From: Candidatus Omnitrophota bacterium
Lineage (GTDB): Bacteria; Omnitrophota; Gorgyraeia; Gygaellales; Profunditerraquicolaceae
Assembly (NCBI GenBank): GCA_022710715.1
Contig: JAKLGJ010000001.1
Span: 362,041 to 426,040 of the forward strand
DNA: 64,000 nucleotides
Reading direction: 5' to 3'
Positions 3,395 through 63,125 of this stretch are shown one piece after another (the stretch's first letter is position 1; every line of letters begins with the position of its first letter). The notes under the pieces were generated by a model, which had not been told where the DNA came from, ran no database searches, and saw only the letters and a list, made by a program, of their open reading frames with translations. Both the position numbers and the translations under genes were made by a program.

Positions 3395-3400
3395 ACTCTC

Positions 3401-4192: not shown

Positions 4193-4200
4193 GGAGAACT

Positions 4201-42379: not shown

Positions 42380-45300
42380 ATGAAAACAATCAAAATCTTG
42401 CTTATAGTGCTGGTAACCCAGTTGTTGTTCTTGTCTTCATTTGTTTATGCAGCCACATACTATGTAGATGGGGCTGTGGCTACGGATAGCGGCAATGGAA
42501 GTCAATCTTCCCCCAAGAAATATATTAAATCCGGTATCGCTCTTATGTCTGGGGGAGATACGCTTATTATAGCTGACGGTACATACACAGGTACGCAGAA
42601 TAATATGTGTACCGATGGCGGGTGGGATTGGACGGGTATTCCTGATGGATCGTCAGGGGCATACACTACCATTAAAGCAGCTAATGACTTTGGTGTCATT
42701 ATTGATGGTGGCGGGACACTTACTGGATTATATCCTAACGGATTGAGCTACGCGGTCATACAGGGGATAATTTTTCAAAATGGCGGTTCCAATGTATATC
42801 TTACTAATTGCGACCATGTAAAAATTTTAAAATGCGCTGGAGTTGATGCTGCCGCTGGGAATGTGTGTAATTTTAATTCAGCTGACGGTGATTATATTTT
42901 GTTTGAAGATTGCTTTTCTTGGGGGAGAGGCCGGTATAAGTTTCTGATTGGAGGAGGTTCAACATATACTATCTTGCGAAGATGTGTAGGGCGATATGAT
43001 TATCATGATGCCGAGAATCCTCACGGAGTTTTTTCTTTTTATGGGGGTTCTTCGACTGATTGTTACGTGCAAAATTGTATTGCTGTTGATGGTCTTGCTG
43101 CTTCTGGTTATGGAACTACCGCATTGTATGCTCCTAATGGGTCCACAAGATTAACTTTTGATTCTTGTATTGTTCTGAATAATGGAGGTGCGGGCAATTT
43201 CTTTGAATCCGGAGCGACATCCCCAACATTGAAGAATAGCGTTATTTGGTATGGCACTTCAGCAGGTACGGCGGCTTCTCAATCATATAGTGAACCATCT
43301 AATGAAACCGTTATAAATTGCACTCTTGGTAGATTCCCATATGGAATTATATCAGCCCATACGAGCGTATCTAACAGTATATTCTATGGCATGACGAGTG
43401 ATGCGATCTCTTGGTCTACAAATAATTATTGTAATTTGTATGGCAATGGTAATAACTATTCAAGCACAACCGGAGGAGTAAATAATGTTGTGTATTCGCC
43501 ACTAACCAATGGTTTAAGATACCTCCCTAGAATAGAATCCAGTTCAACTCTTAAGACCGCTGGTTCATCTGGTGGTCAAATTGGAGCACAGATTATTTAT
43601 CGTCTGGGTGTTTCGGGTACTCTTTACGGAGAGACTGGGTGGAATACGCTAACTGATGAGAATCTATGGCCATTTCCGAATGAAGATGTGATTCGAGAAA
43701 AAATGCGTGTATATAATTTGCATGATGTTAATGGTACTCGCGGTTTTTGCGCGGATGGCCAGACCCTCACCAAGTACATCTGGGAATATTTAGGGAATAC
43801 CATCCCTCCGGAAATTTATGGTGCGCCGGCGACGCCGACGATCAGCACGAGTTCTTTAGCCGGGGGGACAACCGGGACAGCGTACAGCCAGACTTTAGCG
43901 GTTTCCGGCGGGACTTCGCCTTATTCCTGGACCGTTGCTTCCGGTTCGTTGCCTGCGGGCTTGAGCCTGAATATTTCTACCGGAGTTATCTCCGGCACGC
44001 CTTCGGCTGTCGGGACTTCGAGCTTTACCGTGCAGGTGATGGATGCCGAGACGGTGACTGATACCCAGGCGCTTTCTATCGTGGTCAGCGCTCCGGATTT
44101 GACCGCGCCCACGATTTCCTCAATCGCTGCGGGAAGTATTACCGGTTCAGGCGCTGCGATCACCTGGACGACCAATGAAGCGGCTACTTCGCGGGTGGAA
44201 TACGGCACGAGCGTTGCTTATGGTTCACAGACTACTTTGGATAGTACCTTGGTTACCAGCCATTCGGTGAATCTTACCGGCTTGAGCGCTAATACTACCT
44301 ATCATTACCGGGTGAAGAGCCAGGATGCGGCGGCTAATGAAACAGTATCCGCGGACAATTCTTTTACTACCGGTGGTTCTACGGATTACGTCAGCCCCAG
44401 CCCGGACGTAAACTTAACTGATTTTGAATCGGTTCCCGAAGAAGGGACAATGACCGTGAATATTCCGGTTGATCCTTCCACGGCTACTTCTGCAGCGATC
44501 ATTTTAACTATTTATGACGCGGAGAATCCCAATGAAGGCAACTTCTATATCAACGGCAACGGAGAGACTGCGATTCCGTACGGCGATTCTTATGATTCCG
44601 TAGATCATACTTTTGCCCCGATCACGATTAACAAGTCTTATCTGGTGCAGGGCGATAATACCATCAGGTTTACCCATTTAGCTACCAGCGGATTTATTGT
44701 CAGGGATGTGACTATTCGTTTGACCTTTACCGGGTCAAGCGATACTACCGCGCCTTCAGCCGTCAGCACCCTGGCTGCTGCTACCGGCACGAACCGGGGG
44801 ACGGTGAATCTGACCTGGACCTCGCCCGGGGATGATGCTGCTACCGGCACAGCCACCAGCTATACCATCAAGTATTCCACTTCCCAGATCACCAATGACG
44901 CGCAGTTTACCGCGGCTACGGATGTGACCGGTGAACCCGCGCCGGCAGTAGCCGGGACTTCGCAATCGATGACGGTTACCGGTTTGACTCCGGGGACGAC
45001 TTATTATTTCGCGATCAAGACCACAGATGAAGCCGGCAATACCGCCACGATCTCCAATTCTCCCGGCGCGCAGGCTAAGCCCAATGTTCTTCCGGTTTTA
45101 GCTGCGATCGGCGCCAAGAGCGTGAATGAGAATGCCGCGCTTTCCTTTACTATCAGCGCTACTGACGCGGATGGCGACGCGATCACTTATTCTGCCAGCG
45201 GTTTGCCTTCCGGAGCCACGTTCACTGCCGGTACCCGGACATTTGCCTGGACGCCTGCGTACACCCAGGCGGGTTCCTATTCCGTAACCTTTACCGCCAC

Positions 45301-48300
45301 TGATACCCAGTCAGCCAGCGATTCCGAAACCGTCACTATTACCGTAGCTAATGTCAACCGCGCGCCGGTATTGGCGGCGATCGGGGCAAAGAGCGGGTCG
45401 GAAAATACTTTATTGACCTTTACTTTGAGCGCTACGGATGCTGACAGCGATGCTTTGACCTATTCCTGCACTAATCTGCCTTCCGGATCGACTTTGAATG
45501 AATCGACCGGCGTGTTCAGCTGGACCCCGTCATATACCCAGGCAGCCACGTACGGGGCGGTGCATTTCGTGGTTTCCGACGGTAGTCTGACGGATACCGA
45601 GAATATCACCATTACCATCGCTAATACCAACCGCGCGCCGGTGCTTGATGCTATCGGTAATAAGTCGGTCAATGAAAACAGCGCTTTGAGTTTTGACCTT
45701 AATGCCACGGATGCGGATGATGATATCGTAGCTTACAGCGCTTCAGGTTTACCTGCCGGCGCGGTTTTCGACGCGGGGAACTTCAGCTGGACTCCGACGT
45801 ACTCCCAAGCAGGCACATACACCGTGACTTTTACCGCGGATGATCTTAGCGGCGGGACTGATTCCGAGACGATCACTATCACTGTGGGCAATCTGAACCG
45901 CGTGCCGGTGTTAGCGGCTATCGGGAATAAGGCCGTGGATGAGAATGCGCTGTTGAGTTTTGTGATCAGCGCTACTGATGCGGATAGCGATACCTTGACT
46001 TATTCCGCCACGAATTTGCCTTCGGGCGCTACTTTTACCGCCGGGACCAGGACTTTCGCCTGGACGCCGGGCGGCACGCAGGCCGGTAATTACAGTGTAT
46101 CTTTCAGCGTGACCGATCCTAACGGCGGCATCGATTCCGAGACGATCACTATTACCGTAGGCGATGTGAATGCTCCTCCGGTTCTGGCAGCTATCGGCGC
46201 TAAATCGGTGAATGAGAATGCGGCATTGAGCTTTGTGATCAGCGCTACTGATGGTGATGGCGACGCGTTGACCTATGCTGCCGCTAATCTGCCTTCCGGC
46301 GCTACTTTTACCGCCGGGACCAGGACTTTCGCCTGGACGCCGTCGTATACCCAGTCCGGTTCGTATACCGTGACTTTCAGCGTGGATGACGGTCTGGGCG
46401 GGACGGATTCCGAAGCGGTGGTGATTACTGTGGCTAATATGAATCGCGCGCCGGTGCTGGGAGCGGTGGGGAACAAAGCCGTGAATGAGAATGCGGCGTT
46501 GAGCTTTACGTTGAGCGCTACCGATGCGGACAGCGATACTTTAGTTTATTCTGCCACAGGTTTACCTGTCGGCGCTACTTTAGACAGCGCGACCGGGTCT
46601 TTTGCCTGGACGCCGACCTACGCGCAGTCGGGCAACTACAGCGTGACCTTCAGTGTCAGCGACGGCAACGGCGGGACGGATTCGGAAACCATCGGTATCG
46701 CGGTGAATAATGTCAACCGGGTGCCGGTGCTGGACGCGGTAGGCGCGAAATCGGTAGATGAAGGGGTAGCTTTGACTTTTACTTTGAACGCTGCTGACGC
46801 GGATAGCGATACTCTGACTTACGCGGCTGCTAATTTGCCTTCCGGCGCCACGTTTACCGCCGGCACGCGCACTTTCGCCTGGACGCCGGGCGGCACGCAA
46901 TCCGGAACTTACAATGTGACTTTCAGCGTGGATGACGGCAACGGCGGCACAGATTCGGAAACAATCGCGATTACCGTAAATAATGTCAATGTCGCGCCGG
47001 TGTTGAGCGCGATCGGCGCCAAGAGTGTGAATGAGAACGCGGCATTGAGTTTTGTGATCAGCGCTACGGATAGCGATGGAGACGCGATAACCTGCGCGGC
47101 TTCCAATCTACCCGCAGGCGCTACTTTTACCGCCGGGACCAGGACATTCGCCTGGACGCCGTCGTATACACAGTCCGGATCTTACACCGTGACTTTCAGC
47201 GTGGATGACGGTTTGGGCGGGACGGATTCCGAAGCGGTGGCGATTACGGTGGCTAATGTGAATCGCGTTCCGGTATTGGCGGCTGTGGGCAACAAAAACG
47301 TGGATGAAAACGTGGCGTTGAGTTTCAGCTTGAGCGCCACTGACGCAGATAGCGATACTTTGACATATTCCGGTGCCGGGATGCCTGTGGGCGCGACTTT
47401 TAATAGTGCCAACGGAGCGTTCAGCTGGACGCCGACCTATACCCAGGCCGGAAGCTATAGCGTAACTTTCAGCGCCAGCGACGGTAACGGCGGCGAGGAT
47501 TCCGAGGCTATCACTATTACTGTCGCGAATGTAAATCGCGTTCCGGTGTTGGCGGCAATCGGGGCAAAGAGCGTGGACGAGGGAACGGGTTTGAGCTTTA
47601 CGGTCAGCGCGACGGATGCGGATAACGATACCTTGACTTATACGGCTGCGGATGTGCCGGCTGGAGCGAGTTTCACTGCCGGAACCAGGACGTTCAGCTG
47701 GACTCCCAGTTGTCTGCAGTCGGGTGTGTATACGGTGACTTTCAGCGTGGATGACGGCAATGGCGGCACAGATTCCGAAGCGGTGGTTATCAGCGTGAAC
47801 AACGTGAATTGTCCGCCGGTGTTAGCGGCGATCGGCGCAAAGAGCGTTAACGAGAACGCGCAGTTGCAGTTTACGGTCAGCGCCACGGATCCGGAAGGCG
47901 ACAGCTTAACTTATTCCGCGGCGGGATTACCGGCGGGAGCGACTTTTGCGGGTTCGACATTTACCTGGACGCCGTCATATAGTCAGGCGGGTTCTGCTAC
48001 AGTGACGATTACTGCCGACGACGGTAACGGCGGCACGGATTCCGAAGCTGTGGTTATCAGCGTGGCGGATGTGAACCGCTCGCCGATCCTGGATCTGACC
48101 GGCAATAAGACGGTGAATGAGAACAGCGTTTTGAGTTTTGATATCAACGCGACTGATCCGGATGGCGACGTGGTGGCTTATAGCGCGACCGGTGTTCCTG
48201 CGGGCGCGGTATTCAGCGCGGGCAGCTTTAGCTGGACACCGTCATATACCCAGGCCGGTTCCTATACTGTGGTCTTTACCGCGGATGATCTCAATGGCGG

Positions 48301-51300
48301 GGAAGATTCGGAAACGATCACCATTACCGTGAATAATGTGAATCGCGCGCCGGTGCTGGCGGCGATCGGGAATAAGAGCGTGAATGAAGCCGCCGCTCTG
48401 GTTTTCAGCGTCAGCTCAACCGACGCAGACGGCCAGGCTTTGACTTTGTCCGCTGCGAACCTGCCTGCGGGCGCTACTTTTAACGCCGGGACCGGGGTGT
48501 TCAGCTGGACTCCTTCGTATTCCCAGGCCGGCGCATTTGCCGGGGTGCATTTCGAAGTTACCGACGGCGCGGCCACGGATAGCGAAGATATTACCATTAC
48601 GGTGAGCAATGTGAACCGGGAACCGGTTCTGGCCGCCATCGGCGCTAAAACGGTGAATGAAAACGTGCAATTGCAGTTTACCGGTTCCGCGACCGATGCG
48701 GACGGCGATGTTTTGACTTACAGCGCTACCGGATTGCCGGCAGGAGCGACCTTCGCGGGTTCGACTTTTACCTGGACGCCGACGTACGCGCAGTCCGGGA
48801 ATTTCACCGTGACCATCAGCGTGGCGGATACTAACGGCGGGACGGATTCCGAAGCGGTGACGATTTCCGTAGGTAACGTGAACCGGCCGCCGGTATTGGC
48901 TGCGGTGGGGAATAAGACTGTAGCCGAGAATGCGGCGTTAGGATTTACGGTCAACGCTACGGATCCGGACGGTGATGCAGTGACGCTATCTGCAGCGAAT
49001 CTGCCTTCCGGCGCGACGTTTAACGCTGCGACGGGCGCGTTCAGCTGGACTCCGGGTTACGCGCAAGCCGGGGCATACGCGACCGTGCAATTCGCAGCCA
49101 GTGATGGCTCTTTGAGTGATGCGGAAACCATTACGATCACTGTTACAAACACTGATACCACACCGGTTTTAGCGGCTATCGGAAACAAGACGGTGACGGA
49201 AAATGCGGCGCTGTCGTTTACGGTCAGCGCTGTTGACGTAGATGGCGACGCTTTGACGTATGCTGCGGCCGGATTGCCGGCCGGGGCTTCGTTCGCCAGC
49301 CAGGCATTTAACTGGACCCCGGGTTATGATCAGGCGGGTACCTATACGGTGACATTCTCGGTGGAGGATGGGGCGGGCAATAGCGATTCCGAAGCGGTTA
49401 CGATTACGGTGAGCAATGTTAACCGCGCGCCGGCGATGGCTGCGATCGGGAATAAGTCGGTGGTGGCTAAGTCCGAACTGACCTTTACCGTCAGCGCTAC
49501 TGATGCCGACGGCGACGCGGTGACTTATGCGGCTTCAGGTTTGTCGGCCGGTGCGACGTTTAATGCCGATTCCGGTGTGTTCAGCTGGATCCCGACCAAT
49601 GCCGACGCCGGGAATCATACCATTACTTTCAGCGCGACGGATGGTTTAGCTTCCGCTACCGAGGCGATCACCGTGGCAGTGGATGTCCTGGATGAAGAGC
49701 CGCCGTATCTGGATTCATTGAATCCGGAAGAGGGCGAAGTGCAGGTTTCGCGCGATTCCGACGTGTTCTTCTACCTGAAGGACGCGCTTAAGGGGGTCAA
49801 TAAGGATACGATCAATTTGAGCATCAAGCGCGAAGGCGACGCCGCGGCGACCAATGTTATCGTCAACGGGGTAAATCAGCTCTCATCGTATCCGAATAAC
49901 GTGATCCTCCAGAGCAGCAGCGGCAATTACGCGGTAAAGTACGATCCTCCGACCAGCCGCGACTATCGCTTTAAATACGAGCAGAAGATCACGGTGACAG
50001 TCAGCGGCCGCGACCTGGCCGGCAATCAGCTGGCGCCGTACACCTATGATTTCACTACCGCCATGCTGCTTAAGGGGCCGAACAAGAGGGTGAGTACCAC
50101 CACTACGACTACGGCTGAACCTGCTCCGGCGCCGGCAGGCGGCGTGGATGGCGCGGTGCAGCCGCCGGCTGCGACCCAGGTGGTGAATAAAGATAATTCC
50201 TGTCTGGTGATGAATAAATCCAGCAACAAAGTGTATATGGTCTGGCAGGACGACGCCGGACAGATCTGGTTCAATAAATCCGAGGACCGGGGGGTGACTT
50301 TTATCCAGGATACCCAGTTGACCGGCGCTTTGACCGGAACGAACCGCAATCCGCAGATGGCCGTGGATGATCCTGGGAACTTGTATGTGATCTGGGAGAA
50401 CGTGCAGACGGATAATTCGTCGGATCTGTATTTTGCCCGGCTGGATAATAACAGCGCTGCCTGGCAGATCGCGGTGATCCCGGCGGATATCGCGCTGGGC
50501 GTTGCGGCGAATCAGGCGCAGCCGTCTTTAGACGTAACTTCGAGCGGCACGGTGGTGATCGCCTGGGTCAACGGCGCTTCCGGTGTATATTATGCCCGGT
50601 CGACGGATCAGGGCGATAGTTTATGGAATCTGACTGCCGCGCAGACCAAACGGGTGGACGACGGGACTGCGGCGGCGTTTGCTTATCCGGAAATCAAGTT
50701 GAGCGTGAATAGTCAGAATAAGTATGTGGTCTGGAGCGCGGAGAAAAATAGCGAGCGCAATATTTATTTCAACGCTTTGAATAATCAGAATAATCGGGTT
50801 TACGCCCAGGATATTCAGATCAACGACGCGAATAGCGGCACTGCGGCGGACCGGCCGAGTCTGGCCATGCGGCCGGAAGTCGGCGGCGGCGGGCAGAAGG
50901 TGGGTATTTGCGCGGCCTGGGAAAATACCGGCGCTGACGGCGATACGGATATTTATTTCGACAAATCGGTTACCGGCGAGGTGTGGGGCGCGGATATTCA
51001 GGTCAACGAAGACGCGCAGACGCCGCAGGCGCAGAAAGAGCCGGCGCTGGCCATGGATGCCGACGGAAGTATTTTTGCGGTGTGGAGCGATTACCGCAAC
51101 GGCGAATGGGATATTTATTACGCCAATTGCCTGGATAACGGGTTGACTTTCAAGACGAATATTCTGGTGAATGCCGATTCCGGCACCGCGGTGCAGGATA
51201 AACCTTCCTTGTACTTGAGCGCGGACGGCAACCACGTGTGCATCTCCTGGACGGATTATCGTGACGGTAACGGAGCGATCTATTTTAACCGCAACTCCTA

Positions 51301-52045
51301 TGTGGATGAGGACACGACTGAAGAGTCTTTTGTGGATGATTCCGCCGGCGGGACGTTGACGGCCACCGGCAATGCGGATATTCAGCGGGCTTCGGTGGTG
51401 CTGCCGGGCAATGTGCTGGAAGTGCCTACGACCGTGACCATCACCAAAGTGGAATGCCCGCCGCCGGATGCCAACGAGTCGATCGCCGAGAAGGCGGTGG
51501 ATTTCGGGCCCAGCGGTACGGTATTCAAACAGCCGGTAACGATCAAAGTGCCGTATACCGCGGCGGATATGAGCGCGGTGGGGATCACCGATGCGCGGCG
51601 GCTGCGGCTGTTCTACTATAACCTGAAGACGTTGATGTGGGAAAAGCTGGCGGATTCGTATGTGGATACTACGAATCAGCTGATCTGCGCCGAGGTGCTG
51701 CATTTCTCGATCTACGGCGCGGGAGACGGCGGGCCGATCGCGCAGGCTGCGACTACGGGCAGCTCGGCTGCGCCTGCGGGCGGCGGTGGTGGCGGCGGCG
51801 GTGGCGGCGGGTGTTTCATCGCTACGGCTGCGTACGGTTCGTATGATGAGCCTAATGTGAAGATACTGCGGGTATTCAGAGATAAATGTTTGATGACCAA
51901 AGAGTGGGGCCGGAAGTTCGTGAAGTTCTATTATCGCCACAGCCCGGCGATCGCGGATTACATTGAGAGCCGCGAAGGGCTGAAGCTGATGGTGCGCTGG
52001 GCGCTCAAGCCGCTGGTGCTGGCTGCGCGCTCCGCCCTCCGCTAA
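42380..52045 (+). CDS. giant (3221 aa) secreted surface protein: beta-helix domain, He_PIG Ig, two FN3, 17 cadherin-like ~90-aa repeats, Ig-like, BNR/Asp-box propeller, and a Gly-run + Cys C-terminal module
   Basis: Single uninterrupted ORF with coding periodicity. N-terminal 143 aa identical to the 601-aa paralog. Asp-box motifs [17 protein letters not shown] and LDNGLTF. C-terminus G11[10 protein letters not shown]... Confidence 0.8.
45086..49700 (+). repeat. intragenic array of 17 tandem ~270-bp (~90-aa) cadherin-like / He_PIG-like Ig repeats
   Basis: Consensus [41 protein letters not shown]...[40 protein letters not shown]. Several units are about 90% identical at the nucleotide level. 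Confidence 0.85.
51812..52042 (+). other. conserved C-terminal module (giant paralog)
   Basis: [76 protein letters not shown], preceded by G11. Confidence 0.6.
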
Positions 52046-52125
52046 AGGGGACAGGTCCACCCAAAACGGCTCGTCGAGAAAATCGGACAGATGTGTCCCC
52101 TTTGAGATTTGCTGTGTCCCCTTTT
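52044..52125 (+). repeat. ~80-nt structured gene-end element, copy A, directly after the stop codon of the giant gene
   Basis: aggggacaggtccaccc...ggacagatgtgtcccct...tgtgtcccctttt. Its reverse complement recurs at 62636-62714. Confidence 0.8.
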
Positions 52126-52213
52126 AGGGACGGTGTGATGTGCGAGTTGTGAATGGAACCCCTGGGCAGTCTTCGTCCACGTTTTACTTTCCTTCGACTG
52201 ACTGCCATTCTGA

Positions 52214-52257
52214 TGCGGGGATGCTTCCGGGCAGAAGCATCCCCGGCTTTTTTTTTG
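52214..52257 (+). terminator. rho-independent terminator
   Basis: Stem cggggatgcttc / gaagcatccccg with loop cgggca, followed by T9. Confidence 0.75.
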
Positions 52258-52717
52258 AAGGACGCTCCCACAAAAAATGATTTACAGTACGGAATATAAG
52301 GTATAAAATACCAATATAAAGAGCGGAGTCCATGGATGCGGACAATATACGGTAGTGCTTAGGCAACTCTGAAAAAGGGTTGTCATTTTTTTTGATAGTC
52401 AGTATTTGACACGGTTGGCGCGAAATGTTGCAGCATTTGCATTACTGAAGTATCATTTGTTTTAATCTCGCAACAATAACTTATTGGTATGCTGGAGGTT
52501 ATTGTTAAAGTAGAAAAAAGATAGTTTTCAGAACACTTAGTCAGTTCAATGGTTAGCGTAATAGATTAATAATCTTAAGCTTGTGTCAGAAAGACGGTAT
52601 GAATTATGCTTATTTTAATGGGATGGGTTTTTTTGTGCCCAGAATAACCAGGGTGAAATTTTAGTCTATTCTACCTGGTCTGGTGGCGAATATGCTCCAG
52701 AATCTAAAAAATAAATA

Positions 52718-55700
52718 ATGACAAAAGAAGATCGGTTCTTTCCCCGTATTCTATTTTGTACGGCAATTCTTGCTGTTGTTTCATTTATTCCTGCCTATAT
52801 TTTTTCTGTTTCAGCCAATGAATCTGCCACGTCTTCCTGCCAGCATAATCAAGGAACTTGTTCCAAAGAGCCTCATTGTCCTGGAAAACCCAGTTATCCC
52901 AACCCTCCACCCGGTTGTCCCCAAAAGAAGTATTGCAGTCTTTATCCTATTGCGTTAAATGTAACAGTCATTAGTAATGCCAAGGTTGGAGACCGCATAC
53001 CTGATATCCTTAATGAGGGTGGCCCGGGCAATCTGGGTTGGCTTAGCTGGAATGGTAATAATAGCACTGCGATGTTAGTCAGGAGCTTAATCCCGCCTGG
53101 CGCAAGCTTATTGTACAGAAATCCTTATGATGAGCGCGATCATGTAGTTTCTCAAGGAGACTGGATCAGGGGAATGCCGGGTGATCATAATGGCAGCGCA
53201 ATACGGATTGCTCTAAATATGTTAAAAACCCAGCACGTAACTATACCCGTTTGGGATACTGTTAAAAAGCAGAAGGGAGAACTTCTGTATCATGTATCTG
53301 GATTCGCGAAGGTGCAGATAATTGATTTCAATTTAAGCAAAGACAAACGTATATCGGCGATTTATCTTGGCAAGGTGACGTGTGGTGACGAACAAAACCA
53401 ATCTCCAGTTGCTCATGCCGGAGTTGACCAGCAGGTAGCAATTGGCAGTACTGTTACTTTAGACGCCTCGGCTTCTTCTGATCCCGATGGTGATAATCTT
53501 ACCTATAAATGGGCTATTCTGACCAAACCAGATGAGAGTAGCGCTGTGCTTGTGAATGCTGATCAAGCTAATCCTACTTTCATCGCCGATAAATCCGGAC
53601 AATATACTGTCCAGCTCATTGTTAATGACGGTAAAGTCGATAGCCAACCGGCTGCAGTTACAATAAGCACTATCAATCGTCAGCCGGTTGCTAACGCAGG
53701 AGAGAATGTTTCTGCGCAAGTTGGCTCTGAAGTGAATTTGGATGGCAGCGGGTCTAGTGACCCAGATGGCGATCTCTTAAGCTACCTATGGAGTATTACA
53801 ACCAAGCCCCAGAACAGTAACGCGGTATTAGATCATACCGATATTGTAAAACCTTCCTTTGTTGCTGATGTAGGAGGGCAGTATACCGTTCAACTTATCG
53901 TTAACGACGGTAAACTCGACAGTGCTCCTGCTGTGGCAGTTATCAATACCTTAAATCAAGCGCCAATAGCAAATGCAGGCGCTGATGTCAATGTATTTGT
54001 CGGCGCGCTCATTAAACTGGATGGGAGCAATTCCAATGATCCCGATGGGGATCAATTAACCTATTCATGGAGTATTGTAAGCCAACCCGATGGAAGCAAT
54101 GCTGTGTTGCTGGATCCGGCTACAGCTACGCCGTCATTAACTCCCGATAAAGCCGGAACGTATGTAGTGCAATTGATCGTAAGCGACGGACAATTGGACA
54201 GTGTAGCGACAATAATCCGCGTAATCACGGAAAACCGCTCTCCGGCAGCTAATGCCGGGCAGGATATGAGCGTTAATCTCGGGCAGGTGGTGATTCTGGA
54301 TGGAAGCGCCTCCAGTGATCCTGACGGCGATCCGTTGACTTATATATGGAGTATTACGAATAAACCAGAGGGAAGTGGTACTGCTCTTGCCAATGCAGCT
54401 ACTTCAGCACCATCAATGACTCCCGATTTTATTGGGACATACGATGTGCAATTAATAGTTAATGATGGTAAAGTTGATAGCTCGACTTCAGTTGTGCATG
54501 TTACAGCTATTTCCGTCAATAAACCGCCCGAAGTTCATGCCGGTGACGATGTGACAATTACTTTCTCAGTCGATAGAGCAAATCTCAACGGTTCCGCAAG
54601 CGATGATGGGTTACCGTCAGGCGGTACATTAACAGTCTTGTGGAGTGAGGTAAGCGGGCCAGGCGCGGTTACTTTTGAAGACGCGACGTCTTTAATGACC
54701 ACAGCTAGTTTTTCTCAGGCTGGGACCTATGTTTTAAGGCTAACAGCCAGCGATTCTGTCCTTTCAACCAGCAGCGATATGACTGTAACGGTTACTATGG
54801 CTCCTCGGTGCCTTGCTGATCGCGATATACCGCCTCCGAGCGTCGATGGAAGCGGATCATGGGGATGGATCAACCAGGCTTCTTTGATAAATGCTCGTTC
54901 TGAACATACCGCGACACTTTTGCCGTCCGGAAAGGTCCTTGTTGTCGGGAGTAGTTCGAATGGAGGGGCGACTGCAGAGTTGTATGATCCGGCGACCCAA
55001 CGCTGGACTGAAGTAGCGTCTATGCATTATCCCCGTTTTGCGCATACTGCGACATTGCTGCCTGATGGGAAGGTATTGATTACAGGTGGATGGTCAGGTT
55101 CGAATTCGTATGCTTCTGCGGAAGTTTATGACCCTGCAACGAACACGTGGGCGGACGCCGCGCCGATGAACTCTGCTCGAAGCTGGCATACGGCGAATCT
55201 GTTGAGCACGGGTAAGGTTCTGGTTGTTGGGGGGAACGCAGGGACGGCAGCAGAACTTTACGATCCCGCGACGGATTCATGGGCTTCCGCCGGTTCTCTC
55301 AGCTTGAGCCATGTAGGTCATTCAGCAACAACATTAGCGAACGGCGATGTGCTTGTCATGGGAGGCCGTCCCGTGAATAATGCGACCGAGATCTATCATG
55401 TCGCGAGTAATTCGTGGGAACGTTTGAGCGATGCTCCCGTGGCCTGTGCTTTCTACAGGGCGGTGCTCCTGCCTGGCGGAAGGGTCCTGGTTACCGGCGG
55501 GTATAACGATTCCCAGAGATTGAAGGCCGTGCAGCTTTTCGATCCCTCGGTGAACCAGTGGACACGGGTCAAGGACATGAGTGTCGAGCGTGCCGATCAT
55601 GCTATCGCTATTCTTCCAGACGGGAAGGTGATGGTCGGTGGGGGGTACACCAATACGGATATTACCGATACTGTTGAGTTGTATGACGTTGTTGCCGATC

Positions 55701-58700
55701 AATGGACTAATGAGACCAGTTTGCCTTTAGCAAAAGCTTATTCCACCTGGACGCAATTCTCTGACGGGTCGATTTTGTCCGCGGGTGGATATCATGGCGG
55801 AGCTTTGTCCTCAACGGAAATTCTCGCAAAGGGGATCGCCGGATGGCGTAAGATTGCGTCTATGGGTTCGCCTCGATGGAATCATACTACCACGGCTCTT
55901 GCCGATGGCCGCGTTCTTGTCGCGGGCGGCGCCACGGTATGGAGTAATGCGCCGACCCAGGATGCTTTGGATACAGCCGAAATATATGACCCGGCAACAT
56001 CTCAGTGGTCAGCAACGGGATTAATGAATTTCAAGCGTTTCCGTTTCCAATCGGTTTTGCTTTGTGACGGCAGAGTATTGGCAGCAGGAGGGTATGAAAT
56101 GAATGGGAATAGCCTTGCTCAACCCACTGCCGAGATTTTTGATCCCGTAGCAAACGTTTGGACTAGAGTTGCTGATATGCATTATCCTAGAGGGCATGAA
56201 GCAATCGCGCTTTTGCGTGACGGAAGAGCTTTGATCGTCGGAGCTGTATTGGAAAACGGCGATGAGTTTATCACAAAGACCGCGGAAATTTATGAGCCCG
56301 GCCTTAATACGTGGATATTGACCAGTCCTATGCATGACGTGCGCGAGCATCCGCAGGTAACAACATTGAAAGATGGTCGGGTTTTGGTAACAGGGGGTGC
56401 TTATGTATGGTCAATTCCATCCGGGGTTGATATCTCGGCACAGTCTACCGCAGAGATTTATGATCCTTTGTCTGACCAATGGACATTAACAGCTCCGATG
56501 CATCGCCATCTTTCCGGCCACGAGTCAGTTTTACTCTCAGATGGCCGGGTAATGGTTATGGGTGGGATGAGTTATCCTGAGGGAGTGATTACCAGTGGTG
56601 CGGAGATTTACGATCCGGTCAGTGACACATGGACCGAAGTTGCGCCAATGTCCCAGGGACGTCTTGGTTTTTCTGCCGAGCTTTTGGGCGATGGCCGGAT
56701 TCTGGTCACCGGCGGTGGATCAGCTAACTGGTCTTTGGCTGAGATTTATGATCCTGTGACTAATGTTTGGCATGCGATTCCTTCTATGTTCCAGGGGCAT
56801 GGTTTTCTCTCTAATGGGGGAGCTGTTTTAAATGACGGTAGAGTCATGATCGCAGGAGGATGCAGCGGGTCGACCAGTGGTATAACCGAGCACGTCACTG
56901 GAGTCTTGTCGGAGGTTGAAATCTACGATCCCAATACCAGAAATTTGCCGCCGGCAGTAACCGCTGGCGCGGATCAAAGGATTGTTCTATCTAATAACGC
57001 CGTTTTGACCGGTACTGTCAGTGACGATGGCTTGCCCAGAGGGAATAGTGTTGCCGTCTCTTGGAGCCAATTAAGTGGACCGGCAGGTGTAAGTATTCTA
57101 GATCAACATTCGCAGGTCGCTCAGGCGAGTTTTTCGCAAGAAGGCACGTATGTTTTCCGGCTTACTGCTACGGATGGTGAATTGACCTCTTTTGATGAAG
57201 TGGTGATTACTGTTTTGCCTGTAGCTTCGGATGTTACCCCGCCTGATGTGTCGGTATCCGTCAGTCCTGGAAGCACGATCAACACTGGTGATGTCGTTCA
57301 GATCCGGGTCAGGGCTACGGATAATGTCGGTATTACCGCCTTGCAACTGACAGTTAACGGCAGCGTTTTGGCCCTGCAGCCTGATCCCCAGGATTCGGCT
57401 ATTCAGCAGGCGAGTTTTTCTTCCGAAGTCGCTGGGGTTTTCACTGCTTTAGCAGTTGCCCAAGACGCTGCTGGAAATCAGGGCCAGGCTTCATTGCAGA
57501 TCACCGTTAATGAGCAGACTACGCCTCCGCAGCCGCCGATAGTGGAAATTTCTTCGCCGGCAGACGGTGCACATCTTAGTATGACGCAGACATTCGTTGG
57601 AACAGTATTTTCGTCGAACTTGGTGAGTTACACTCTCGAATACTCGTTTGTCGGTGAGGATAACTTTATTACGTTCGCTACGGGGACTAATGCTGTCAAT
57701 CATGACGTTCTGGGGATTTTGAATACCAATGTTCTAATGAATGGATTCTACGATATCAGATTGACTGCGACAGATGCCAGCGGTCTTACAGTATCAATTA
57801 CAATGCGATACAGTGTCCAGAGTGATCTAAAGATAGGGCAATTCGGGTTTAGCCAGCAGGATCTGGTTATTCCGGTCAATGGTATGCCGCTATCCGTGAT
57901 CCGGACGTATAGTTCATTGAATCCGAATGCCGGTGATTTTGGGTATTCCTGGACGTATGCCATCCAGGATATGAATGTGCAATTCAATGAGTATCGGTCT
58001 GATAATAACGTTGAGTCATTTAGTCAGCGCACGGGTGGAAGCCGGGATATTTCCTTGACTCTGCCGGATGGCCGCCGGACGACATTCACGTATAATCTTC
58101 AAATGGAATCTGTTTTCGGCACGCCGAACTTACAAACAATACGGCAGCTAGCGGTCTGGACACCTCCTCCGGGCGTATATGATACCTTGACCCCGATCGT
58201 ATCCAATCGGCTGATTACTTTGTACAGCACTATAGAAAATACGAGAATTTCTTATTGGGAAGCTGATCCGCAGATGGGGAATATGGATGTTTATGATTTC
58301 CCGGCTTTTATATTGACAACGAAAGAAGGCGTTAAATATTTGATCACCAGGGAAGACCTCGGGAGCCATATGACGGACAGCGCTATTACGGTCCACGCGT
58401 ATGGTAAAGCCCATTTGAGCAGGATTACGGATAGGAATGGGAACTGGACCGAGATAGCTGCTTCGCGGATCGACAGTTACAATGCTCAAGGTGTCAATAC
58501 CCGTTCGGTCATTTTTCAAAGGGACAGTCAAAACCGTATTATATCAGTCACCGATCCTAATAGTCAGTCTAACGGTGGCCCGGCAGCAGTCACCTACGAT
58601 TATGACAGCTCAGGGAATTTGTTCCACGTCAACCGTTTAGTCAGTAATGAGTCCGGTCATGCCCCGGTATATGAGACCACTACATTTCTATACCTTAATC

Positions 58701-61700
58701 CTAACTATCCGCATTACATAACCGATATCCAGGATCCGCGCGGGTTAACTCCGTTAAGGACTGTTTATGACAGCGAAGGCAGGCTTATTGGAACTATCGA
58801 TGCTCAAGGTAATCAGATCAGGCTTACCCATGATATTGCCGGTCATAGTGAAACTGTATATGACCGGCTGGGAAATCCAACTATCCACACATACGACGAC
58901 CGGGGTAATGTTATAGCTACCGTTGATGCGTTGGGCAATACGGTTGAATGCCAATACGACGATAACAACAATTTGATCGCAGAAATCGATGCTTTGGGCC
59001 ACTCGACTATTTATACCTATGATGACCGGGGAAACCAACTGACACGTCGCGACCCCTTAGGCAATGTCACCACTTTGACGTATGATTCTTTAGGGAATAT
59101 TTTAACAGAAACTGATCCGCTTGGTTATGTGACTGAAAATACGTATGATGCGCACGGGAATCTGTTGACGGTCAAAGATGCAATGGGCAACATTACGACT
59201 AATACGTACGATGACAACGGGAATCTGGCAACATCTACCAATGCGCTGGGCAGGACGACTTCTTATCAATATGATAATGCCGGGCATATGATTCAGCAAA
59301 CTGACGCGTTGGGGAATGCGGCGACGTTTACCTACGATTCTAACGGGAATAAACTCACTCAAACCGTAAATCGCGTGAACGGCAGTGAGGCTGAAGCTAT
59401 AACCACCCAATATGTGTACGATTCAGAGAATAGAGTTGTAAGAACCGTTTATCCTGATAGCACCAGCACACAAACTGTGTATAACAACATCGGTAAACAG
59501 GCGGCGGTTATTGATCAATCAGGCAGGCAGACGGCATTCGAGTATGATTCTACCGGTAATCTGGTGAAGACTACGTATCCGGACGATACAACTCAGACTT
59601 CAACGTATGATGTCAATGGCCGGCAATTAAGTACGACTGACGCTGCCGGCCATGTAGTTAGTTTCCACTATGACGCTGTGGGGCAGTTGATACGGACTAC
59701 GTATCCGGATAATACATTCTCGACAACAACATATGACCCTGCCGGACGCACAATCGCGGTTACTGATGCCAAAGGCAACACCACGACGTATTTCTATGAT
59801 AATGCCAATCGTCAGATTTCGATACAATTCGCCGATAACACTGCGCAGGCTACTGAGTATGATGCTTCGGGCAGGATGATCTCTAAGACTGATCAAACTG
59901 GCCTTCAGACCCGGTATGAGTATGACTCTTTGGGCCGGCTGATTAGAGTAACCGACGCGTTGGAGAATGTTACCAGTTATACCTATGATCAAATAGGCAA
60001 TCAACTTACCCAGACAGATGCCAATGGGCATACGACGACCTTTACGTATGACGCCGTGGGGCATCGAATCAGGAGGACTTTGCCTCTGGGGATGTTCGAG
60101 ACGTATCAGTATGACTCAACCGGACAGATGGTTCAGAAAACCGATTTTAACGGAAGAACCACGACGTACAGTTATGATATCATGAATCGTTTAGTCCAGA
60201 AGATACCTGATCCCAGTTTCGGTGCGCCGGCCATTTCATTTATTTATAATAGCTTGGGCCAGCGTATATCCATGAATGACGCGAGTGGCACGACGACCTA
60301 TACGTATGATAACCGCAATCGGTTACTGACAAAATCTACTCCTGAAGGAACGCTAACCTATACGTATGACGTGGTGGGTAATGTCCGGAGTATACGATCG
60401 TCGCATAGTAACGGCGTTTCAGTTGACTACAGCTATGATGTTATGAATCGGCTTGCCACCGTTGCAGATAACCTGTTGCCAGATAATAAAGTGACGAGCT
60501 ATTCGTATGATCAGGTGGGGAATGTGCAGAGTTATATTTATCCCAACGGGGTGCAGTCTGCGTATACGTATAATAATTTGAACCGACTGACAAATTTAAC
60601 GGTGGCTCGATCTTCAACCCTCGCTTCATATACCTATACGCTGGGACCTGCCGGGAATCGACTTTCTGTAGCGGAGTCGGCTGGTCGACGGGTAAATTAT
60701 TCCTATGATGCAACCTATAAATTAACCGGAGAATCCATTTCAGGTGATAATAACGGCGGCAATGGTTCGATATCATATACTTATGACCCTGTAGGCAATC
60801 GCTTGGCCCGGTCTTCGAGTGTTTCGGCTATTTCCAGCCAGGGTTTTACTTATGACGCCAACGATCGGTTGTCTATCGATGGCTATGATGCCAACGGCAG
60901 CACCGTTTCGTCAGGGTCAGATACTTATACGTATGATTTTGAGAATCGTCTCATCAGTTCTACGGCTGGCGGGGGCGTGAGATTTGTTTACGATGGCGAC
61001 GGCAATCGTGTAGCGAAGACTTCGGGAGGGGCTACGATCCAATATCTGGTCGATGACCGAAATCTTACCGGATATGCACAGGTAATGGAAGAGATTGCGG
61101 GGGGAACCGTACAGAAGAGTTATACTTATGGCCTGGCGCGGATCTGCCAGAATCAGGGCGGCACGGTGAGTTTCTATGGTTATGACGGGCATGGGAATGT
61201 GCGGGTACTGACCGATTCCAATGGGGCCGTGACGGATACGTATGATTATGATGCGTTTGGGAATATGATTCAACATGTTGGAGATACTGCCAATATGTTT
61301 TTATATTCCGGTGAACAACTAGATTCGAATGTTGGCTTTTATTTCTTACGCGCTCGGTACATGAATCCTTTTAATGGACGATTCTTAACATTAGATAGTT
61401 ACATGGGTGATATGTGGTTGCCATTATCGTTGCATAAATATTTTTATGCATATAATAATGCGATTAATGCTGTTGATCCCTCTGGTCAAATAACTTATTT
61501 GGATGTAATGTCGATAGATGACCTGATTGACGCTCCCATTTTTATTAAATCTAATAGAGTGAGTGATAAATCAATTATTATGAAGTCTAAGGCGAAAAGC
61601 CTTTTATCTGTGGTAGAATCGAGGGCTCAAGAATGGTTTGGAAGACCTTACGAATTTGGAGCAAAAGGTGATAAAGAACCTGATTACGCCATAGATTGTA

Positions 61701-62026
61701 GTCATTTTATTCAAAAGGTTTATAAAACACATGAATGCGGTACAGCCAATTATCATCTGCACAAAGACGAATGGGAGCGTTTAACAGCTTTAGAATCTTC
61801 TAAGCCCGAAGATTGTTTATTGCCTGCCGACATAATCGTATGGCAGGGGAAAAATAGTAAGGGTGATTATGTTGGGCATGTTGCTATTTGGACAGGATGG
61901 GGTGGGGGTGTGGCATTGCTTCATGCGAATTTGTCCTATGGCATGGTCTTACATACACCCAATTATGTTGACCAAATGTCCCAATTTACTGTTAGAAAGT
62001 ACTATCGGTATATAAAAGCAAGGTAG
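52718..62026 (+). CDS. RHS/YD-repeat polymorphic toxin (3102 aa): N-terminal unknown domain, ~6 PKD-like domains, ~20 Kelch blades, Ig/PKD domains, YD repeats, RHS core, and an NlpC/P60-like C-terminal toxin domain
   Basis: Kelch motifs (ARSEHTATLLPSGKVLVVGG...YDPAT..W). YD repeats (YTYDDRGNQLT, YQYDNAGHMIQ...). RHS core RARYMNPFNGRFLTLDSY...YAYNNAINAVDPSGQ. C-terminal DCSHF / GHVAIW / LLHAN. Confidence 0.85.
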   Translation: MTKEDRFFPRILFCTAILAVVSFIPAYIFSVSANESATSSCQHNQGTCSKEPHCPGKPSYPNPPPGCPQKKYCSLYPIALNVTVISNAKVGDRIPDILNEGGPGNLGWLSWNGNNSTAMLVRSLIPPGASLLYRNPYDERDHVVSQGDWIRGMPGDHNGSAIRIALNMLKTQHVTIPVWDTVKKQKGELLYHVSGFAKVQIIDFNLSKDKRISAIYLGKVTCGDEQNQSPVAHAGVDQQVAIGSTVTLDASASSDPDGDNLTYKWAILTKPDESSAVLVNADQANPTFIADKSGQYTVQLIVNDGKVDSQPAAVTISTINRQPVANAGENVSAQVGSEVNLDGSGSSDPDGDLLSYLWSITTKPQNSNAVLDHTDIVKPSFVADVGGQYTVQLIVNDGKLDSAPAVAVINTLNQAPIANAGADVNVFVGALIKLDGSNSNDPDGDQLTYSWSIVSQPDGSNAVLLDPATATPSLTPDKAGTYVVQLIVSDGQLDSVATIIRVITENRSPAANAGQDMSVNLGQVVILDGSASSDPDGDPLTYIWSITNKPEGSGTALANAATSAPSMTPDFIGTYDVQLIVNDGKVDSSTSVVHVTAISVNKPPEVHAGDDVTITFSVDRANLNGSASDDGLPSGGTLTVLWSEVSGPGAVTFEDATSLMTTASFSQAGTYVLRLTASDSVLSTSSDMTVTVTMAPRCLADRDIPPPSVDGSGSWGWINQASLINARSEHTATLLPSGKVLVVGSSSNGGATAELYDPATQRWTEVASMHYPRFAHTATLLPDGKVLITGGWSGSNSYASAEVYDPATNTWADAAPMNSARSWHTANLLSTGKVLVVGGNAGTAAELYDPATDSWASAGSLSLSHVGHSATTLANGDVLVMGGRPVNNATEIYHVASNSWERLSDAPVACAFYRAVLLPGGRVLVTGGYNDSQRLKAVQLFDPSVNQWTRVKDMSVERADHAIAILPDGKVMVGGGYTNTDITDTVELYDVVADQWTNETSLPLAKAYSTWTQFSDGSILSAGGYHGGALSSTEILAKGIAGWRKIASMGSPRWNHTTTALADGRVLVAGGATVWSNAPTQDALDTAEIYDPATSQWSATGLMNFKRFRFQSVLLCDGRVLAAGGYEMNGNSLAQPTAEIFDPVANVWTRVADMHYPRGHEAIALLRDGRALIVGAVLENGDEFITKTAEIYEPGLNTWILTSPMHDVREHPQVTTLKDGRVLVTGGAYVWSIPSGVDISAQSTAEIYDPLSDQWTLTAPMHRHLSGHESVLLSDGRVMVMGGMSYPEGVITSGAEIYDPVSDTWTEVAPMSQGRLGFSAELLGDGRILVTGGGSANWSLAEIYDPVTNVWHAIPSMFQGHGFLSNGGAVLNDGRVMIAGGCSGSTSGITEHVTGVLSEVEIYDPNTRNLPPAVTAGADQRIVLSNNAVLTGTVSDDGLPRGNSVAVSWSQLSGPAGVSILDQHSQVAQASFSQEGTYVFRLTATDGELTSFDEVVITVLPVASDVTPPDVSVSVSPGSTINTGDVVQIRVRATDNVGITALQLTVNGSVLALQPDPQDSAIQQASFSSEVAGVFTALAVAQDAAGNQGQASLQITVNEQTTPPQPPIVEISSPADGAHLSMTQTFVGTVFSSNLVSYTLEYSFVGEDNFITFATGTNAVNHDVLGILNTNVLMNGFYDIRLTATDASGLTVSITMRYSVQSDLKIGQFGFSQQDLVIPVNGMPLSVIRTYSSLNPNAGDFGYSWTYAIQDMNVQFNEYRSDNNVESFSQRTGGSRDISLTLPDGRRTTFTYNLQMESVFGTPNLQTIRQLAVWTPPPGVYDTLTPIVSNRLITLYSTIENTRISYWEADPQMGNMDVYDFPAFILTTKEGVKYLITREDLGSHMTDSAITVHAYGKAHLSRITDRNGNWTEIAASRIDSYNAQGVNTRSVIFQRDSQNRIISVTDPNSQSNGGPAAVTYDYDSSGNLFHVNRLVSNESGHAPVYETTTFLYLNPNYPHYITDIQDPRGLTPLRTVYDSEGRLIGTIDAQGNQIRLTHDIAGHSETVYDRLGNPTIHTYDDRGNVIATVDALGNTVECQYDDNNNLIAEIDALGHSTIYTYDDRGNQLTRRDPLGNVTTLTYDSLGNILTETDPLGYVTENTYDAHGNLLTVKDAMGNITTNTYDDNGNLATSTNALGRTTSYQYDNAGHMIQQTDALGNAATFTYDSNGNKLTQTVNRVNGSEAEAITTQYVYDSENRVVRTVYPDSTSTQTVYNNIGKQAAVIDQSGRQTAFEYDSTGNLVKTTYPDDTTQTSTYDVNGRQLSTTDAAGHVVSFHYDAVGQLIRTTYPDNTFSTTTYDPAGRTIAVTDAKGNTTTYFYDNANRQISIQFADNTAQATEYDASGRMISKTDQTGLQTRYEYDSLGRLIRVTDALENVTSYTYDQIGNQLTQTDANGHTTTFTYDAVGHRIRRTLPLGMFETYQYDSTGQMVQKTDFNGRTTTYSYDIMNRLVQKIPDPSFGAPAISFIYNSLGQRISMNDASGTTTYTYDNRNRLLTKSTPEGTLTYTYDVVGNVRSIRSSHSNGVSVDYSYDVMNRLATVADNLLPDNKVTSYSYDQVGNVQSYIYPNGVQSAYTYNNLNRLTNLTVARSSTLASYTYTLGPAGNRLSVAESAGRRVNYSYDATYKLTGESISGDNNGGNGSISYTYDPVGNRLARSSSVSAISSQGFTYDANDRLSIDGYDANGSTVSSGSDTYTYDFENRLISSTAGGGVRFVYDGDGNRVAKTSGGATIQYLVDDRNLTGYAQVMEEIAGGTVQKSYTYGLARICQNQGGTVSFYGYDGHGNVRVLTDSNGAVTDTYDYDAFGNMIQHVGDTANMFLYSGEQLDSNVGFYFLRARYMNPFNGRFLTLDSYMGDMWLPLSLHKYFYAYNNAINAVDPSGQITYLDVMSIDDLIDAPIFIKSNRVSDKSIIMKSKAKSLLSVVESRAQEWFGRPYEFGAKGDKEPDYAIDCSHFIQKVYKTHECGTANYHLHKDEWERLTALESSKPEDCLLPADIIVWQGKNSKGDYVGHVAIWTGWGGGVALLHANLSYGMVLHTPNYVDQMSQFTVRKYYRYIKAR
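61491..62023 (+). other. C-terminal toxin domain after the RHS core, NlpC/P60-like papain-fold (predicted peptidoglycan hydrolase)
   Basis: Cys-His-His arrangement in the order typical of NlpC/P60: AIDCSHFIQKVY ... GDYVGHVAIWTG ... LLHAN. Confidence 0.45.
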
Positions 62027-62220
62027 CAAATGGTGAACAAGGGAACTGGTCCGACGATTTTGTCTCGTTGACAATAGTGGCAAAAGTGCTGGATCAAGGT
62101 ACAATAGTGGACGCTCCTGAAGGTGTCACCCTTGCTGGTTCTGCCGCGTGAGGACGATCAGCTGGGGCACTCCCTCACAAAAAATGATTTACAGGTAGAG
62201 GGAAAAAGCAAAAATAGTTG

Positions 62221-62248
62221 TTGACAAATCCGGGAATGCTGGTACAAT
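62221..62248 (+). promoter_or_regulatory. sigma70-like promoter of the cold-shock gene
   Basis: TTGACA, 16-nt spacer, TACAAT. Confidence 0.5.
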
Positions 62249-62367
62249 TATCAATGTAGTAAACAAAGATTAGAAGTCGAAAGCCGAAAAGCAAAGAAGT
62301 CTAGCCTTTCGGTTTTTTTATTTTCTACTTCGTTTACTATAATCTTAGAAGAAAAGGAGGTTACACA

Positions 62368-62568
62368 ATGGTAAAAGGAAAAGTAAAGTGGTTCTCTAAC
62401 GAGAAGGGTTATGGATTTATAACTCCTGAGTCCGGTAAAGATGTATTCGTACATCATAGCGTCATTCAGGGTGAGGGATATAAAACACTCACCGAGGGAC
62501 AGGATGTTGAGATGGAAATCACCCAGGGCCCTAAAGGTGAGCAAGCTTCGAAAGTAATCAAGCTGTAA
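62368..62568 (+). CDS. cspA: cold-shock protein (CspA family)
   Basis: 66 aa with [16 protein letters not shown] (RNP1) and VFVHHS (RNP2). Strong RBS AAGGAGG. Confidence 0.9.
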
Positions 62569-62591
62569 TCTGAAGTTTTCACCACGAAAAA

Positions 62592-62627
62592 TGGCTCGGC
62601 AGGAAACTGCCGGGCCATTTTTTTTTA
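62592..62627 (+). terminator. rho-independent terminator after the csp gene
   Basis: Stem ggctcggcag / ctgccgggcc with loop gaaa, followed by T9. Confidence 0.7.
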
Positions 62628-62635
62628 AGATGGGC

Positions 62636-62714
62636 AAAGGGGACACAGCAAATTGCGAAGGGGACACATCTGTCCGATTTTCTCGACGAGCCCAAAAGGG
62701 TGGACCTGTCCCCT
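62636..62714 (-). repeat. ~80-nt structured gene-end element, copy B (inverted), directly after the stop codon of the minus-strand response-regulator gene
   Basis: The reverse complement matches 52046-52125 apart from a flipped loop (aaaac/ttttg) and a few substitutions. Confidence 0.8.
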
Positions 62715-63069: not shown

Positions 63070-63125
63070 TGGGCCTCCCGTAAAAGTTATCCACAGGCAG
63101 TCCGGGACTCCCTGTGGATAAGTGG

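Follow-up and report, generated by a model that had tools for sequence, protein, structure and literature searches.

A window of 64,000 nt from contig JAKLGJ010000001.1 of a Candidatus Omnitrophota bacterium (the whole stretch of DNA analysed here) carries two short palindromic elements, copy A at 52046-52124 (+) and copy B at 62636-62714 (−), which are joined to the stop codons of two convergent genes and enclose an RHS toxin gene and a csp gene. Both copies are probably members of a dispersed, non-coding and imperfectly palindromic repeat family of Omnitrophota, similar to repetitive extragenic palindromes (REPs) and bacterial interspersed mosaic elements (BIMEs) and devoid of their GTAG/CGTC tag. 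Copies of the family cluster at the 3′ edge of genes, mostly in sense orientation, and the stop codon of the gene often abuts or overlaps their first G. The first-pass annotation of this DNA had considered three readings for the pair, namely a long conserved terminator or 3′ untranslated region (UTR) structure, a repeat of the REP or miniature inverted-repeat transposable element (MITE) type, and sites for the inversion of the toxin segment. It is the second of them that is favoured here, since a multi-copy dispersed family was found which shows presence/absence and module insertions and deletions between strains.

Repeat finding between 51.5 and 63.5 kb returned one long inverted pair, whose two 79-nt arms A and B are 90% complementary. 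The arms have in common a 35-nt block, GGCTCGTCGAGAAAATCGGACAGATGTGTCCCCTT, which occurs exactly twice in the window, where shuffled sequences are expected to hold 0.00 occurrences. Copy A starts one base past the TAA (52043-52045, +) of an open reading frame (ORF) of 3221 aa (42380..52045) that encodes a surface protein with He_PIG/Big_9/cadherin-like repeats. A single A at 52046 precedes its 53-nt core at 52047..52099 (+; GGGGACAGGTCC...CTCGTCGAG...CAGATGTGTCCCC), delimited by alignments and by a score of 73 bits with the covariance model R1 described below. The core is followed by a 3′ module with a second TGTGTCCCCTT arm (52100..52124, +), also present in copy B, in a further copy C and in the copy of locus L062, and then by a tail at 52125..52155 (+). 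In copy B, read downward from 62714, the first G of GGGGACA (62713) is at the same time the third base of the TAG (62715-62713, −) of a 118-aa response-regulator gene; its core spans 62661..62713 (−, 77 bits) and its 3′ module, again with a second TGTGTCCCCTT arm, 62636..62660 (−). Both copies contain the GGGGACA...TGTCCCC stem, the CTCGTCGAG centre, the second TGTGTCCCCTT and T residues thereafter. In this regard, the initial description of one ~80-nt element of that build, placed directly after both stops as an inverted pair bracketing RHS and csp, was accurate. The inverted layout is that of two convergent transcription units, each with its own sense-oriented copy. Moreover, canonical terminators are located downstream of both: a 12-bp stem at 52216-52245 with a T-run reaching 52255 (+), ~90 nt past copy A and kept in a sister strain, and a hairpin at 62590..62625 that separates csp from copy B, carries T-runs on either strand and looks like a terminator in both directions. 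Both copies are thus probably situated within 3′ UTRs.

The source bacterium is uncultured and originates from anaerobic-digester metagenomes (JGI Ga0116241_10000002, GCA_035390565.1). Following the suggestion of the first-pass annotation that further copies be sought, many were found, strongly tied to gene ends. A scan of metagenome contigs with the pattern GGGGACAGGTCC-N9-13-CTCGTCGA gave 75 loci, ~50 of them with true cores; the remainder were chance matches, mostly to uvrB coding sequence, which accounted for the matches with a gap of 12 that were discarded. The covariance model R1, built from family members, yielded ~78 strong matches in the same loci, ~20 of them outside the seed pattern. 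Pattern scan and model together define ~70 non-redundant copies of a constant 53-nt core from metagenome contigs and one Omnitrophota metagenome-assembled genome (MAG). Several short contigs have 3-4 copies (four in L074), and the density reaches 4 per 7 kb. Among species-representative genomes, the strict pattern gave 0 matches and a relaxed one a single match, to a MAG from Omnitrophota that has three copies within 8 kb, which places the window's own species outside that representative set. Homologues of the helix-turn-helix (HTH)-cupin regulator next to the pair are likewise named Candidatus Omnitrophota by NCBI.

The core measures 53 nt in nearly all copies, with the consensus GGGGACAGGTCC-RCYG-WWWW-NNN-CTCGTCGA-S-AAAA(A)-NNNN-CAGA-NN-TGTCCCC, framed as a rule by AA...TT. 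It is closed by the stem (A)AGGGGACA / TGTCCCCTT and has a conserved centre, CTCGTCGA(G/C), together with a variable AnTm tract; terminal inverted repeats AAGGGGACA / TGTCCCCTT are found in nearly all copies. The first stem bases are GGGGAC, and the 5′ flank is AA in about half of the copies, TA in about a quarter, or TT. The tract (alignment columns 19-22; window 52063-52066 and 62694-62697) reads TTTT, ATTT, AATT, AAAT or AAAA in 46 of the 54 unique copies, that is, AnTm with no TpA step. Inverted doublets with 36-71 nt between their members exist in L032, L058, L066, L068, L073 and L085. In genomes other than that of the window, many cores are followed by further conserved modules, for example TT, a G-run and the hairpin GGCGCCGAAGAGAATCGGCGC with a T-run, and in the window's subfamily the second TGTGTCCCCTT arm is an optional module; this joining of cores to differing modules makes the architecture a mosaic. 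Copies A, B and C have derived features (ACCC, AATCRG and the third arm) that are absent from the Ga0265297 copies. Another subfamily, called CC, consists of near-perfect palindromes with flanking A and T runs, whose inverted repeats reach 13 bp. As for the modules themselves, GGCGCCGAAGAGAATCGGCGC with its T-run and ~40 nt conserved after it (L036 3404-3445 and 3541-3575; also L045, L019/L048 and L083) recurs downstream of cores and once alone, as a second repeat family combined with the core family. There are also hairpins of 39-46 nt with the stem GGGGACGCTTCT/AGAAGCGTCCCC and subsequent T-runs (L088 6037-6076, L090 1937-1975, L051 631-676), which look like intrinsic terminators and whose stem sequence is that of the 3′ arm of the 53-nt core.

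Other copies are located close to the pair. Within the supposed bracket itself, the covariance model detected a decayed core, copy D, at 62039-62090 (+; 23 bits, E 0.0016), 12 nt past the TAG of the RHS gene (62024-62026). Available DNA around the csp and regulator genes of the window (locus L004) reaches ~8.5 kb beyond the window end, and two palindromes with A/B-like termini are placed there, within 10 kb past that end. One is copy C (L004 19712-19795), with the 79-nt architecture of A and B; an 1842-aa gene ends on one side of it and a pseudopilin gene of a type II secretion system (T2SS) starts on the other, and its orientation is opposite to that of the gene whose stop adjoins it. The other (L004 13884-13960), 5 nt past the stop of a 311-aa gene, has GGGGAC/GTCCCC ends, a similar TTTTGTCCCCTTT tail and a different interior. 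On the same DNA it was observed that the T2SSC-like and T2SSG genes, adjacent in related Omnitrophota (L090, L092 and L093, compared with L004 11778-19813), are separated in the window's genome by the additional 311-aa and 1842-aa genes, with a GGGGAC palindrome after each.

The relation to stop codons was quantified on 70 non-redundant copies, taking as gene stop the stop that closes an open frame of at least 80 codons, and as null random intergenic positions of the same loci. At the 5′ end of the core, a stop lies within -2 to +1 nt in 16 of the 70 copies (23%) and within 15 nt in 32 (46%), in comparison with 1.45% and 6% of the random positions. At the 3′ end, with the gene on the other strand, the corresponding figures are 4/70 and 12/70, and sense orientation to the upstream gene is altogether 3-4 times commoner than antisense. 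Since stop adjacency is seen across copies, the fusion of A and B to their stop codons is a property of the family. The stops that adjoin copies are TAG (16), TAA (15) and TGA (2), against a background of 135 TAA, 77 TGA and 60 TAG. The start of the next downstream gene is found at widely varying distances (30 to 600 nt). Doublets located between convergent genes repeat the layout of A and B, each copy being sense to its own gene (for instance L032 10329+ and 10457-). Many scattered copies with no association to gene ends had been named as the result that would point to a generic MITE; the reverse was obtained, many copies with a strong association (23% vs 1.45%). A coding role or a read-through signal was also considered and rejected, since the stops do not keep one frame with respect to the core (d from -2 to +1 and beyond) and copy A meets a TGA after 19 codons.

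Turnover of the elements became visible in a sister strain, L009 (GCA_025490955.1), which is 96% identical to the window over three stretches: L009 1-3311 with window 48719-52029 (3′ part of the giant gene), 3340-3438 with 52156-52254 (terminator region past copy A) and 4202-5577 with 62202-63597 (csp through response regulator). Between the first two, L009 has 28 nt instead of the 124 nt of the window (52032..52155, +), a stretch in which the giant gene has its final codons and its stop, and hence no copy A. The encoded protein ends in LAARSALR* in the window and in LAAREAISRAR* in L009, so that its last 4-7 residues are strain-variable at the site. The 31-nt tail past the 79-nt repeat of A, within the missing stretch, resembles the tail of the independent L062 copy, which implies a full unit of ~110 nt; relative to L009, the inserted unit measures about 110-124 nt (52032/52046-52155) and exceeds the 79-nt repeat. 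Copy B is present in L009 without its 3′ module, 21 nt of which were lost between two direct TGTGTCCCCTT repeats. At L051, from a more distant relative with a neighbouring regulator 79% identical, the orthologous response-regulator gene ends in ...GCCCTGAAATAA, with TAA at the same codon and no element, the junctions being GCCCTGAAATA/GGGGACA in the window and GCCCTGAAATA/AAAACTG in L051. Other Omnitrophota have different GGGGAC...GTCCCC palindromes at or near this site, often with T-runs after them. When pairs of empty and filled sites were sought among all loci, copy A versus L009 was the only one obtained. As judged from these alignments, gain, loss and remodelling of copies take place over the time in which strains diverge.

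In most of these traits the family recalls the REPs and BIMEs of Enterobacteria and Pseudomonas, with the GTAG and CGTC superfamilies. In the parts of the survey by Di Nocera et al. (2013, PMC3733652) drawn on here, REPs placed between convergent or co-directional genes lie <20 bp from ORF 3′ ends, GTAG REPs frequently supply a TAG stop with their termini, and REPs form inverted dimers. REPs and the A/B family have in common short imperfect palindromes in many extragenic copies, a position within ~20 nt of upstream ORF 3′ ends, a stop codon that at times is part of the terminus, singletons as well as inverted dimers between convergent genes, the joining of other short modules, and lineage-specific subfamilies. 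Omnitrophota is not among the phyla named in those parts of the survey. With the REPINs (REP doublets forming hairpins) and their REP-associated tyrosine transposases (RAYTs), the family has in common inverted doublets foldable into a long hairpin, the lack of target-site duplication, vertical persistence and within-lineage subfamilies (Bertels and Rainey 2011, PMC3116915). It differs from them in that the core is one long imperfect palindrome and not two hairpin REPs, in the variable doublet spacing of 36-71 nt, and in that no single-copy RAYT gene with REPs on either side, the defining trait of those systems, was detected in the family loci analysed. The Correia repeat enclosed elements (CREE) of Neisseria and other bacterial MITEs are also small, non-coding and gene-adjacent, with terminal inverted repeats, transcription into UTRs and polymorphism between strains. 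However, Correia elements (100-155 bp) duplicate a TA target, and no target duplication was detected at copies of the A/B family. Finally, the uptake-sequence pairs of Neisseria and Haemophilus that double as terminators offer a parallel in which a short motif, here GGGGAC, is a hairpin stem just past genes while the interiors differ; the parallel fails in that the motif is not over-represented outside hairpins and that the whole 53-nt unit is conserved, not only a 10-12-mer. Enrichment of the uptake-sequence kind was rejected, as the window holds 8 GGGGACA outside the elements in comparison with 5.1 expected.

Several observations weigh against classing A and B with REPs. The family has no unpaired GTAG/CGTC tag, its conserved end being the stem (A)AGGGGAC and CGTC occurring only in the centre, and its unit of 53-110 nt (core 53 nt) is longer than the 20-40 nt of classical REPs. 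Neither a RAYT nor another dedicated transposase was found in two weak tests confined to the family loci analysed: Y1_Tnp was absent from the top-25 list of Pfam families for the 150 ORFs that neighbour copies, and a RAYT query sequence gave no match. Only 5 copies were seen in ~74 kb of the window's genome, with 0 in the first 52 kb of the window, and densities elsewhere are biased because the loci were collected via the element itself. Homologues of the giant protein are too variable in their C-terminal endings to set the polarity, insertion or deletion, of the indel at copy A. Lastly, the AnTm tract hints at a feature read on double-stranded DNA, and a role as RNA hairpin leaves this tract unexplained.

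If A and B do belong to a REP-like family, copies would be transcribed within the 3′ UTR of the upstream gene, and their outer hairpin, located at the 3′ end of the mRNA, would either impede exonucleases or assist termination, by analogy with what has been proposed for REPs. The near-perfect palindromes of the CC subfamily, with their A and T runs, may qualify as intrinsic terminators on the basis of the predicted folds, and could then terminate transcription in both directions. Spread would take place via a mechanism that does not duplicate the target: direct repeats of 2-6 nt were not in excess at any offset around the copies when compared with permuted flanks. The absence of duplications argues against a cut-and-paste DDE transposase and would agree with recombination or with a mechanism of the REP type (HUH/RAYT-like).

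A more specific version of this idea, tentative and on balance unlikely, is that of a new kind of mobile palindrome that targets the stop codon itself when it inserts, with insertion coupled to gene orientation and with a mover that is neither the RAYT of GTAG REPs nor a DDE transposase; the family would then represent an Omnitrophota-specific, GGGGAC-tagged superfamily. In that case the junction at the response-regulator site would follow the first two bases of an ancestral TAA, the element's G would complete TAG, the last codons of the giant gene would have been rewritten, and gene 3′ ends and protein C-termini would be continually remodelled.

The best surviving rival, and still quite an unlikely one, is a dedicated cis-acting RNA element, a structured 3′ UTR or long terminator kept by selection on RNA structure or by an RNA-binding protein and not proliferating. 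The preponderance of sense copies is consistent with it, as are the location of copies between the stop codon and a canonical terminator, the CCCC with a short T-run in A, B and C, and the outer stem: in ten cores folded singly, the 9-bp outer stem closes in all (z -1.5 to -9.6, with the extreme in the CC subfamily). Yet the interiors of these folds differ from copy to copy, and folding is only modestly better than for shuffled sequences (z -1.7 for A and -1.1 for B with flanks, -2.2 and -2.1 for their cores). RNAalifold on the 54 unique cores retains the outer stem alone, 7+2 pairs, all of them invariant, and gives no covarying pair; a covariation check had been advised in the first-pass annotation. 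When pairs were counted on a full-hairpin model derived from the CC subfamily, 73% of the cells were paired vs 72% in shuffles, and interior pairs were mostly broken in most copies. A strand test did not mark either strand as RNA, G-U (44 cells) not being favoured over A-C (67). The AAAAC of copy A versus TTTTG of copy B had been taken as a sign of selection on RNA structure; it is one state of the polymorphic AnTm tract, and its AAAA forms break the pairing with the downstream A-run, which argues against compensatory RNA evolution. The element does not have the form of an intrinsic terminator either, because its stem encloses 39 nt and most sense copies continue with TT only, without a U-tract; a consensus terminator scan called neither A nor B and separately called the terminators at 52216-52245 and 62597-62612. 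Rfam gave no match at gathering score in the window, and at E up to 10 in 51950-52350 only two noise matches, to the neighbouring terminator. Furthermore, a strain of 96% identity lacks copy A, and an orthologous locus lacks copy B. The proposal of a long conserved terminator or 3′ UTR structure is thus weakly supported: copies are indeed placed between stops and canonical terminators, and only the outer stem is common to them, without covariation and with differing interiors.

Very unlikely is also a classical MITE, the deletion derivative of an insertion sequence (IS) with AAGGGGACA/TGTCCCCTT as terminal inverted repeats, moved in trans by a DDE transposase. Terminal repeats of 9 bp, which in the CC subfamily extend to as many as 13 bp, a multi-copy state and presence/absence polymorphism are what such an element would show, and one copy lies ~0.5 kb from an IS110-family transposase gene. 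Nevertheless, the 2-6 bp target-site duplication is missing at any offset, no longer element with the same ends exists in 300 kb of family loci, and no matches were obtained in a scan of viral contigs (0 matches) or by BLAST against plasmids and phages. The IS110-family gene (DEDD_Tnp_IS110 + Transposase_20; L036 3905-4963, −) adjoins the terminator module. It was rejected as the carrier: it neither interrupts a core nor has core halves on its two sides, and no split core was seen. Elements of the IS110 family are not known to have such inverted repeats. IS110/IS1111 elements target REP-like sequences in other bacteria.

More improbable again is that the copies are retained for a role in the chromosome, as sites on double-stranded DNA for a host protein (a nucleoid-associated protein, or gyrase or integration host factor (IHF), as is the case at BIMEs) or as a signal for uptake or partition. 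Conservation is far stronger in sequence than in pairing, the core has a fixed length, the stem GGGGACRCTTCT is common to unrelated interiors, and the AnTm composition of the tract in 46 of the 54 unique copies hints at a constraint on DNA shape or the minor groove. On the other hand, GGGGACA is not enriched outside the elements, the position of copies is tied to stop codons and gene orientation, and copies come and go between strains.

That A and B are recombination sites inverting the 10.5-kb RHS-csp segment, as a phase-variable toxin switch, is hardly credible: two 79-nt copies in inverted orientation do flank the segment, but csp adjoins the response regulator in a single orientation in the 8 of 8 csp-carrying places listed (from 15 assembled contigs), the upstream gene has the window orientation in both places listed, no recombinase was present among the genes in or beside the segment (RHS, csp, response regulator, HTH-cupin regulator) and no tRNA there, copy D sits inside it, L009 carries copy B while copy A and the RHS gene are both missing, the RHS gene is likewise missing from L011, where copy B is full-length, and elsewhere the family makes inverted pairs 36-71 nt apart. 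The A-B pair is not a functional unit and has no role in rearranging RHS-csp, so the attractive idea of the RHS toxin segment as an invertible cassette can be set aside.

Omnitrophota, an uncultured phylum, has very small cells and giant genes. A REP-like repeat family is documented in it, apparently for the first time. The family can be useful as a marker of gene 3′ ends and is a source of assembly breaks in these MAGs. Its 5′ end coincides with TAG/TAA far above chance, which makes it a clean case for asking why palindromic repeats settle on stop codons. As behaviour this is not new, since placement near stops and the donation of stop codons are already described for REPs in the portions of the survey used (PMC3733652).

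Some side observations concern the neighbouring genes. A response-regulator receiver domain is encoded by 9 of the 150 ORFs that neighbour family copies (loci L013-L077). The frame of the window's response regulator stays open for ~154 codons beyond its TAG (62251-62715, −), in the same frame as ORF 62251..62667 and antisense to csp; it is probably a chance antisense frame. For the C-terminal ~70 residues of the 3221-aa protein (window 51800-52042), several homologues are named 'CFI-box-CTERM domain-containing protein' by NCBI, a naming that suggests a C-terminal sorting signal. The RHS gene region (52255-62201) is strain-variable, being absent from L009 and L011. In its place L009 has ~760 nt (3439-4201) with two small overlapping genes of 113 and 98 aa that lack a Pfam match, and L011 likewise. 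The G+C content of the region (42-55%) is lower than that of the neighbouring giant gene (57-58%), and direct repeats of 26 nt flank it at 52262-52287 and 62169-62194, each with a TTTACA promoter-like hexamer.

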